Shown here piece by piece: positions 30,488-30,641 of a stretch of DNA of 37,784 bases. Source of the DNA: a virus (Duplodnaviria > Heunggongvirae > Uroviricota > Caudoviricetes); IMG/VR virus record IMGVR_UViG_2529292883_000004, positions 1 to 37,784 of that record. One strand, written 5' to 3'. Positions within the stretch are counted from its first letter, which is position 1; the number at the start of each line of letters is the position of its first letter. The notes under the pieces are model-generated. The model worked only from the letters and a program-made list of their open reading frames with translations, did no database searches and had not been told where the DNA came from. A program made the position numbers and the translations under genes.

Positions 30488-30562
30488 TGGAGCGGGTAGC
30501 GGGAATCGAACCCGCATCATCAGCTTGGAAGGCTGAGGTAATAGCCATTATACGATACCCGC
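30488..30562 (-). tRNA. tRNA-Gly (anticodon UCC)
   Basis: 75-nt minus-strand sequence GCGGGTATCGTATAATGGCTATTACCTCAGCCTTCCAAGCTGATGATGCGGGTTCGATTCCCGCTACCCGCTCCA folds as a cloverleaf. Anticodon stem TCAGC/GCTGA with loop CTTCCAA; CCA end encoded. Confidence 0.85.
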
Positions 30563-30565
30563 ATA

Positions 30566-30641
30566 TGGTGCCGACTACCGGAATCGAACTGGTGACCTAC
30601 TGATTACAAGTCAGTTGCTCTGCCTGCTGAGCTAAGTCGGC
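30566..30641 (-). tRNA. tRNA-Thr (anticodon UGU)
   Basis: 76-nt minus-strand sequence GCCGACTTAGCTCAGCAGGCAGAGCAACTGACTTGTAATCAGTAGGTCACCAGTTCGATTCCGGTAGTCGGCACCA. Anticodon stem ACTGA/TCAGT with loop CTTGTAA. Separated from tRNA-Gly by 3 nt. Confidence 0.85.

Follow-up and report, generated by a model that had tools for sequence, protein, structure and literature searches.

The late region of a lambdoid prophage in IMG/VR virus record IMGVR_UViG_2529292883_000004 carries a fused pair of tRNA genes, tRNA-Thr(UGU) and tRNA-Gly(UCC), both of which are near-copies of Escherichia coli genes. We analysed positions 1 to 37,784 of the record, and this whole stretch of 37,784 nucleotides (nt) is called the window below. 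On balance we think it somewhat probable that the pair encodes functional elongator tRNAs, which would benefit the phage by adding scarce isoacceptors during late gene expression.

ARAGORN called both genes and no other tRNA gene in the whole window, and both match the Rfam family RF00005 far above its gathering score of 29 (E ~1e-13 to 1e-12; feature coordinates and scores are collected in Table 1). These calls bear out a first-pass annotation of the window, made from the sequence by eye, which had placed a tRNA-Thr(UGU) and a tRNA-Gly(UCC) 3 nt apart and had proposed tRNA predictors as a check: its coordinates are exact, and the gap is the trinucleotide TAT. The minus-strand location, the existing annotation and wide spread of the pair, the larger RNA module around it and the literature on tRNAs as nuclease targets were absent from that annotation. 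The order of transcription is Thr then Gly, on the strand shared with the antiterminator gene Q, the methyltransferase gene and the lysis and structural genes. Both anticodon loops, CUUGUAA in tRNA-Thr and CUUCCAA in tRNA-Gly, have seven nucleotides, U33 and a sense anticodon. For threonyl-tRNA synthetase (ThrRS) the identity elements are G1:C72, C2:G71, G35 and U36, and for glycyl-tRNA synthetase (GlyRS) they are U73, C35, C36 and the first three acceptor pairs. In alignments to thrU and glyT of E. coli K-12 the window tRNAs are the same at all of these positions; no changes fall in the anticodon arm, the discriminator or acceptor pairs 1-3 of either tRNA, and the window tRNA-Gly has no added stem mismatch relative to host glyT.

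The alignments also point to the source of the pair. The window tRNA-Thr is the same as thrU at 74 of 76 positions and differs by U16C and U20C in the D-loop, while the window tRNA-Gly is the same as glyT at 73 of 75, the acceptor-stem pair C6:G67 having become U6:A67 with pairing kept. The earlier statements that tRNA-Gly is host glyT with a compensatory acceptor-stem change, and that a tyrU-like tRNA is absent, to be checked by alignment against host thrU and glyT, thus hold: the genes are near-copies with two changes each, C6U is matched by its partner G67A, and the window has only two tRNAs, joined by a 3-nt spacer. As judged from these sequences, the pair was most likely captured from the host thrU-tyrU-glyT-thrT operon, with tyrU lost and thrU and glyT fused. 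In the host operon thrU-CCA has a T behind it and glyT an AT in front of it, and the spacer TAT may be these two joined; this fits a clean loss of tyrU together with its 116-nt spacer, three bases being weak evidence. The pair shares its anticodons, anticodon arms, discriminators and CCA ends with the host operon (thrU-tyrU-glyT-thrT-tufB), but differs from it in lacking tyrU, thrT and tufB, in the 3-nt fusion, in its leader, promoter and trailer, in its place in a prophage late region and in its derived alleles. The host arrangement is therefore not kept, with no tyrU between the genes and no other tRNA in the window. A decayed thrT behind tRNA-Gly was considered because some relatives have a GACGATA-like sequence, and was rejected as no tRNA-like signal was found (E ≤5 in the window, E ≤0.5 in relatives).

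We scanned IMG/VR with an exact pattern for the Thr-spacer-Gly junction, which returned at least 119 contigs; the allele counts given here come from the matches listed, and the pattern demanded intact Thr 3′ and Gly 5′ ends, so that the sample is biased to good copies. The spacer was TAT in 115 of 119 listed copies, which supports a single origin of the fused pair. The commonest phage alleles are 100% host-identical (69/117 for tRNA-Thr, 53/117 for tRNA-Gly) and, given the host origin, the host-identical form is probably ancestral and the window alleles would be derived from it. The exact window Thr allele, i.e. with C16 and C20 as the only changes, was present in 23 copies and the window Gly allele (U6:A67) in 36, and all four combinations of Thr and Gly alleles occur. 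With further changes allowed, positions 16 and 20 of tRNA-Thr read CC in 30, CU in 5, UC in 2 and UU in 80 of the 117 copies. Stems had no extra mismatch in 109 Thr and 113 Gly copies of 117 each, and the anticodon loop was unchanged in 115/117 and 116/117, respectively. We also considered a chromosomal thrU as donor of the C16/C20 allele, using an exact-match scan of 185,579 species-representative genomes. This was rejected: there were six hits, all of them fused pairs in E. coli or Shigella flexneri, and the allele was found in no chromosomal thrU among these representatives, and we conclude that it arose in the phage lineage.

Homology between copies in different gene contexts runs from ~110 nt upstream of tRNA-Thr to a strong terminator ~380 nt downstream of tRNA-Gly. 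Judging by this homology, promoter, leader hairpin, two tRNAs, structured trailer and terminator travel as one unit. The putative sigma-70-like promoter scored 10 of 12 matches in a consensus scan, and of the 37 distinct upstream variants at least 25, from differing gene contexts, have a TTGnnn-16-TAnnAT element with its −10 ending 62-68 nt ahead of tRNA-Thr. As a precedent, a separate start site mapped in Stx2 phage Sp5 appears to drive the prophage tRNAs there (PMC7547250). The arms of the leader hairpin show covariation between distinct leaders (12 have GGTTCC/GGAACC, 10 have GGTTCT/AGAACC and 3 are mixed), and its role would be in processing or stability.

The trailer is 54-80% identical to the window copy over 24 distinct versions, with indels that are not multiples of three, and stands behind the pair in a long (~380-396 nt) or a short (~250-305 nt) form. 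Of the 45 unique copies, taken from ~60 loci, 44 belong to related loci. RNAalifold predicted 97 pairs with 96.4% of cells paired, and 18 pairs were changed on both sides compared with 8.7±1.9 for shuffles (0/500) and 2-4 for slid controls, the structure being scored on the same alignment from which it was derived. The 3′ half (30293-30103) gave a full-length match to Rfam STnc100 (RF02076) at 20.6 bits, and relatives gave 27.6-35.5 bits, against a gathering score of 47; it is plausible from this that the trailer is distantly related to STnc100, and we do not claim membership. STnc100/PasD and the PasA/PasC small RNAs (sRNAs) have been placed in the interval between Q and the holin gene (bioRxiv 10.64898/2026.05.13.724894), and in Stx phages a constitutive late promoter yields a terminated transcript that is processed into the sRNA StxS (PMC7547250). 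Like STnc100/PasD and StxS, the trailer is a structured RNA in the Q-to-holin interval that ends at an intrinsic terminator, and the STnc100 model and the trailer have the CGGGAGGCACCCG hairpin in common. Unlike them, it has a sub-threshold score, has two tRNAs and two more domains in front of it, and is known here from sequence alone. One relative (L063) has two STnc100-like copies, at 2237-2435 and 3005-3208 (35.5 and 32.8 bits), one on each side of its Thr-Gly pair. A protein-coding explanation of the gap was rejected: the open reading frames (ORFs) at 29966-30154(-), 30323-30520(-) and 29388-29618(+) have no PHROG hit, and the non-triplet indels and covarying stems indicate non-coding sequence. 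Hits to microRNA, snoRNA and plastid families in a permissive Rfam scan were discarded as shape matches to the long hairpin or to the antisense of the tRNAs.

The pair would be expressed as one precursor, either (i) from the module's own sigma-70-type promoter ~60 nt upstream, possibly in the lysogen, or (ii) during lytic growth, by Q-antiterminated read-through from the late promoter beside Q, as analogy with related phages suggests. Cleavage by RNase P and 3′ trimming would yield two mature tRNAs; with all known identity elements unaltered, the host ThrRS and GlyRS would be expected to charge them. The consequence would be a greater capacity to decode ACA/ACG and GGA/GGG, codons that E. coli reads with isoacceptors of low abundance and single gene copy: a Thr tRNA with cmo5U34 for ACA/ACG and a Gly tRNA with mnm5U34 for GGA/GGG.

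We compared codon usage, per 1000 codons, between the 44 minus-strand ORFs of the window and 40 K-12 genes. All four codons were more frequent in the prophage: ACA at 14.8 compared with 5.5 (2.7x), ACG at 32.8 compared with 12.5 (2.6x), GGG at 23.0 compared with 9.3 (2.5x) and GGA at 12.0 compared with 6.1 (2.0x), which places each of them within the 11 most enriched of the 61 codons. ACG (38/1000) and GGG (25/1000) are driven by the late genes. The heaviest user is the ORF for a 1,447-amino-acid tail protein, annotated as a leucine-rich repeat protein in relatives, with ACA at 31.8, ACG at 56.7, GGA at 21.4 and GGG at 36.0 per 1000 (146/1000 together). The same argument from ACA has been made for the tRNA-Thr(UGU) of phage SfI (PMC3636060).

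Several observations nevertheless weigh against codon supply. The codons enriched most are AGG (8.9x), AGA (6.8x), CGG (4.5x) and ATA (3.1x), and no tRNA here serves them. The late genes of phage phiP27, which has no Thr/Gly tRNAs, use ACA, GGA and GGG about equally often, and the ileZ/argO tRNAs that phiP27 does carry match its stx2e cargo (ATA at 44.6 and AGA at 24.8 per 1000 in stx2e) and not its late genes. The 40-gene host reference is partly made up of highly expressed genes, so that the enrichment ratios are somewhat inflated, and expression, charging and fitness effect are all inferred. The first-pass annotation had held that phage tRNAs in this slot usually supply codons enriched in late or cargo genes; the enrichment is present, at 2.0-2.7x for the four cognate codons, whereas its specificity is undercut by phiP27. 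Codon supply is therefore supported, but not decisively. We rank it first and counter-defence second, and the two are compatible.

Counter-defence would mean that the phage copy of tRNA-Thr(UGU) keeps ACA/ACG decoding going if host thrU is destroyed by a nuclease of abortive infection, with U16C/U20C as an escape from AriB, the effector of PARIS; we regard this as possible but doubtful. Host tRNA-Thr(UGU) ranks among the prime targets of AriB, as do tRNA-Lys(UUU) and tRNA-Asn(GUU), and the second AriB subunit has been modelled on U16-U17 of the D-loop (PMC12409363). The resistant tRNAs of phage T5 have C at position 16, and in E. coli tRNA-Lys the change U16C 'significantly impaired' cleavage (PMC12409363), although this effect was measured on tRNA-Lys in vitro only. 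The window tRNA-Thr has exactly this U16C, in a derived allele confined to phage-type pairs in the genome scan above, and the allele is common, with single-change intermediates (the CU and UC copies) also present. Like the T5 tRNA-Lys, tRNA-Thr and tRNA-Asn that neutralise PARIS, it thus combines the anticodon of an AriB target (UGU) with C in place of U at 16. Unlike them, it is unchanged at and near the cut site in the anticodon stem, at and around which the T5 tRNAs are also substituted: its anticodon arm is host-identical, with the AriB cut site (U36AAUC/A41, cut at the slash) intact. The company that these tRNAs keep is suggestive, in that relatives add to the cassette a Lys(UUU)-like tRNA whose scaffold is foreign, and phages SfI, Sf6 and 21 carry Asn(GUU) with Thr(UGU), which together with Lys(UUU)-like would make up the AriB target set. 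However, U16 is kept by 68% of the fused pairs listed, i.e. the cassette is maintained without the escape allele, and counter-defence leaves tRNA-Gly(UCC) unexplained, as it is not a reported lethal target. On the sequence evidence, AriB evasion is a credible reading of the C16/C20 allele.

The nuclease OLD of phage P2 offers a second comparison. It kills mainly by destroying tRNA-ThrU, from which it removes the anticodon arm at paired CNG motifs, and phage genes for tRNA-Thr(UGU) protect the cell, among them that of phage 21 (Thr21), encoded in the same slot (PMC12445682). Resistance requires an altered CNG motif and a shorter anticodon stem; the anticodon arm is the main determinant, and extra or overexpressed host ThrU gave little or no protection (PMC12445682). 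Both OLD motifs (CUG 28-30 and CAG 40-42) are intact in the window tRNA-Thr, and its host-identical anticodon arm means that no OLD resistance is expected; P2 OLD resistance was therefore rejected as an explanation of the window allele. Thr21, like the T5 tRNAs, is in any case a different, diverged scaffold, ~68% identical to the window tRNA-Thr, with a diverged and shortened anticodon stem and Asn instead of Gly as its partner. Separately, the anticodon arm of the window tRNA-Gly has CAG at 28-30, CUG at 40-42 and A37, i.e. the paired CNG motifs and A37 reported for OLD substrates.

Four rare Thr alleles in IMG/VR, e.g. ...AATCACCAGG... and ...AATCATCAGG..., are changed at G42 and U43. These variants, which occur on both U16 and C16 backgrounds, convert the 3′ CNG motif from CAG to CAC or CAU and lose the top two anticodon-stem pairs. 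The changes are of the same two kinds as those that give P2 OLD resistance to a phage tRNA-Thr; equally, they could mark decaying copies.

A broader proposal, to which we give slightly less credence than to counter-defence as such, is that the C16/C20 allele was selected by AriB, and possibly by other Toprim nucleases that read the D-loop, and that the pair is the core of a mobile, self-promoted counter-defence/sRNA unit swapped among lambdoid late regions. If this were true, the series of host-identical, C16, C20, C16+C20 and rare G42/U43 alleles would record an arms race fought with near-host tRNAs, unlike the diverged tRNAs of lytic phages.

It is unlikely that the tRNAs serve chiefly as RNA punctuation, i.e. 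as RNase P/RNase E signals that cut the late or module transcript and release the STnc100-like RNA, with tRNA function secondary. The analogy would be the 3′ external transcribed spacer of the leuZ tRNA operon or the release of StxS, short terminated late-promoter transcripts do give rise to functional sRNAs in Stx phages (PMC7547250), and the arrangement here would suit it: a structured trailer and a strong terminator always stand behind the tRNAs, homology runs from promoter to terminator, and the trailer has covariation support and a likeness to a prophage sRNA family (bioRxiv 10.64898/2026.05.13.724894). However, the invariance of the anticodon loops and identity elements (115-116 of 117 copies listed) would not be expected of pure cleavage signals, the Thr-Gly pair also occurs in four-tRNA cassettes and with short trailer forms that lack the STnc100-like domain, and the ends of the trailer RNA are predictions from the sequence.

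Least probable of all is that the pair is a neutral passenger, a stretch of host DNA acquired on a single occasion that has since moved with the late-region module to the benefit of neither phage nor lysogen. Its near-host sequences, with commonest alleles that are fully host-identical, and visibly broken copies (e.g. L129 and L131, where the Thr acceptor arm has lost 1 nt) would fit. However, it persists over many unrelated late-region contexts, its stems are intact and its anticodon loops invariant in the great majority of copies (in a sample biased to good ones), compensatory changes occur (U6:A67, and G48A with C64U), and a conserved promoter stands at a fixed distance from it.

The fused pair is common and already annotated by PGAP, and is a known kind of late-region tRNA cassette. 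The 5,421 complete E. coli genomes all contain the host locus (as two pieces, 97.4% identical to the query), and in addition there are ~1,150 extra matching places, with 95 records at ≥99% identity. We found no paper on the thrU-glyT fusion, its promoter-to-terminator module or the D-loop allele, and none of these is a new kind of thing. The pair stands behind a methyltransferase gene in 21 loci, behind an anti-repressor gene in 12 and ~1 kb behind RusA in 23, and in one locus (L023) it lies directly behind a DUF1133 Q-like gene. In E. coli 120899 the entire 154-nt pair is 100% identical to that of the window. Phage SerU-LTIIb (KU052038) has the same fused pair, with a 100% identical tRNA-Thr and the same methyltransferase and holin neighbours, but it differs in having two cassettes, the first with a UCU (Arg) anticodon on the Thr scaffold, and LT-IIb toxin genes downstream; the window has one cassette and no toxin gene. 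The anticodon-shifted Thr scaffold of SerU-LTIIb (L002, 6397-6472), in the cassette beside the methyltransferase gene, combines UCU with G24A and A31G, and in two IMG/VR contigs (e.g. L075, 3480-3555) a shifted Thr scaffold has UUU (Lys) with A26G. Saks et al. (1998) reportedly turned E. coli tRNA-Arg(UCU) into a working tRNA-Thr(UGU) with one anticodon change, and by analogy the UCU copy of SerU-LTIIb would be the natural reverse of that switch.

Many relatives have a compact four-tRNA cassette of a Met/Ile2-like(CAU) tRNA, a second tRNA, Thr(UGU) and Gly(UCC) (L010, L013, L016, L027, L029, L031, L032, L045, L052, L062, L084 and others). The second tRNA has one scaffold, with a loop of either the Arg type (CUUCUAA) or the Lys-like type (CCUUUAA or ACUUUAA). 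The Lys-like form has C at the near-universal U of position 33 and a different discriminator, so its functionality is putative; its stem positions 39-41 are GUU, and the AriB cut-site sequence is therefore absent.

The Stx phage cassettes (ileZ-argN-argO, or ileZ-argO in phiP27) occupy the same slot, from Q/methyltransferase to the lysis genes, on the same strand. They differ in pairing Ile2-like and Arg species with toxin cargo that has the matching rare codons, whereas the window slot has no cargo gene; phiP27 shares its backbone with the window and has ileZ-argO-stx2e in the tRNA slot. The lambdoid phages 21, SfI, Sf6 and ST64T resemble the window in that a tRNA-Thr(UGU) gene closely follows Q and the late promoter. 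In phage 21 the order is pR'-tR'-tRNA-Asn-tRNA-Thr-S21, with the tRNAs after tR' and no separate promoter annotated.

The locus is a lambdoid prophage with a contractile tail, and a host chromosomal location is excluded. As the first-pass annotation had supposed, the pair is prophage-borne and lies between the methyltransferase gene and the lysis cassette: the window has a lambdoid gene set (Q, RusA, DUF968, anti-repressor, methyltransferase, holins, endolysin, spanin, terminase, portal, capsid and contractile tail, with the sheath, tube, baseplate and fibre genes further downstream on the minus strand), and near-identical prophages are integrated in E. coli chromosomes. These are 93-98% identical over the stretch, with the PGAP order DNA-methyltransferase, tRNA-Thr, tRNA-Gly. 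The placement is that of a lambdoid late-region cassette, with the tRNAs between Q and holin on the late strand.

The promoter-like site after Q is probably the late promoter; Q-modified polymerase starting there would continue into the tRNAs and lysis genes, the connection with tRNA expression being our inference. Between Q and the late genes an antirepressor switch of the P1 immI/Gifsy-1 IsrK type is inserted, at 33041-33262 and 32425-32988 on the minus strand, with Rfam matches to isrK (75.5 bits), C4 antisense RNA (66.7 bits) and also c4-a1b1. The isrK match runs from 33226, the expected start of a late-promoter transcript, to a terminator at 33171-33155, so that isrK may be the short terminated late transcript of the prophage.

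About 1.2 kb without a recognisable gene separates the tRNAs from the first holin gene. A terminator scan of 28800-34200 found 15 sites compared with 6.0±2.3 expected, and the four hairpins before the holin start imply that the lysis genes need antiterminated read-through. The ~620 nt at 29489-30108 (-) are restricted to the same prophage type (IMG/VR L122, L124 and close E. coli relatives). They have no PHROG-matching ORF and hold what appears to be a broken small membrane-protein frame (…YLLGFILVIWGL…); because their position is that of the stx2e slot of phiP27, they may be decayed cargo.

At the left end of the window, on the plus strand, stand a second anti-repressor ORF (1-561, full-length, phrog_2379), a second C4 RNA (605-688, 53.8 bits) and a partial phage esterase gene (1446-1967). 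This segment (1-1967), which adjoins a tail-fibre assembly gene, looks like a remnant of another lambdoid late region that abuts the prophage.

Table 1. Positions of the tRNA pair, its RNA module and neighbouring features in the window.
Feature	Position	Strand	Details
tRNA-Thr(UGU)	30566-30641	-	76 nt, CCA encoded; ARAGORN; Rfam RF00005, 69.8 bits
Spacer TAT between tRNA-Thr and tRNA-Gly	30563-30565	-	3 nt, coding strand
tRNA-Gly(UCC)	30488-30562	-	75 nt, CCA encoded; ARAGORN; Rfam RF00005, 65.6 bits
Sigma-70-like promoter	30709-30736	-	-35 TTGAAA 30736-30731; 16-nt spacer; -10 TATTAT 30714-30709; predicted start near 30702
5′ leader hairpin	30645-30700	-	Arms GGTTCC 30700-30695 and GGAACC 30650-30645; ends 3 nt before tRNA-Thr
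Structured non-coding trailer	30109-30461	-	Domain 1 30461-30367; ~28-bp hairpin 30362-30279; domain 3 30269-30171; terminator
Intrinsic terminator AACCGCC-GCTCCA-GGCGGTT-T8	30134-30109	-	Stem 30134-30115; T-run to 30109
DUF968 gene	34062-35201	-	
RusA gene	33643-34020	-	
Antiterminator Q gene	33267-33662	-	Pfam PF06530, E = 2.5e-52
Promoter-like site after Q	33262-33233	-	TTGACC-18-TATATT; promoter scan
isrK and C4-type RNAs with ORF6N anti-repressor	33239-32425	-	Rfam; between Q and late genes
TrmB-like small ORF		-	Between anti-repressor and methyltransferase
N6/N4 DNA methyltransferase gene	30807-31853	-	Pfam PF01555, E = 6e-42; PHROG DNA methyltransferase
Four terminator-like hairpins before holin start	29460-29488, 29435-29459, 29349-29395, 29328-29348	-	Terminator scan and sequence reading
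First holin gene	28916-29308	-	Pfam PF16931; ATG at 29308, Shine-Dalgarno AGGAG; fits 393-nt holin annotated in relatives
Second holin gene	28651-28926	-	
M15 endolysin gene	28271-28654	-	
Rz spanin gene	27818-28255	-	
1,447-amino-acid tail protein gene	3596-7939	-	Baseplate-wedge N-terminus, Ig-like domains, repeats matching phrog_9915

A recent preprint attributes tRNA hits near PasA/PasC prophage sRNAs to integration hot spots or remnants (bioRxiv 10.64898/2026.05.13.724894). The Q-to-holin tRNAs in the loci that we examined are phage-borne genes co-oriented with the late genes, and the integration-site explanation may therefore not hold for all of those hits, a suggestion based on our loci.

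As a tRNA pair in a lambdoid late region the element is routine, with identical copies in public E. coli genomes and in one phage record. It does, however, provide a natural test case for the question of why temperate phages carry tRNAs that their host already has, as it combines a traceable single-operon origin, near-host copies, a small allelic series and one D-loop allele relevant to AriB. With these properties, codon supply and nuclease evasion should be separable with few constructs.

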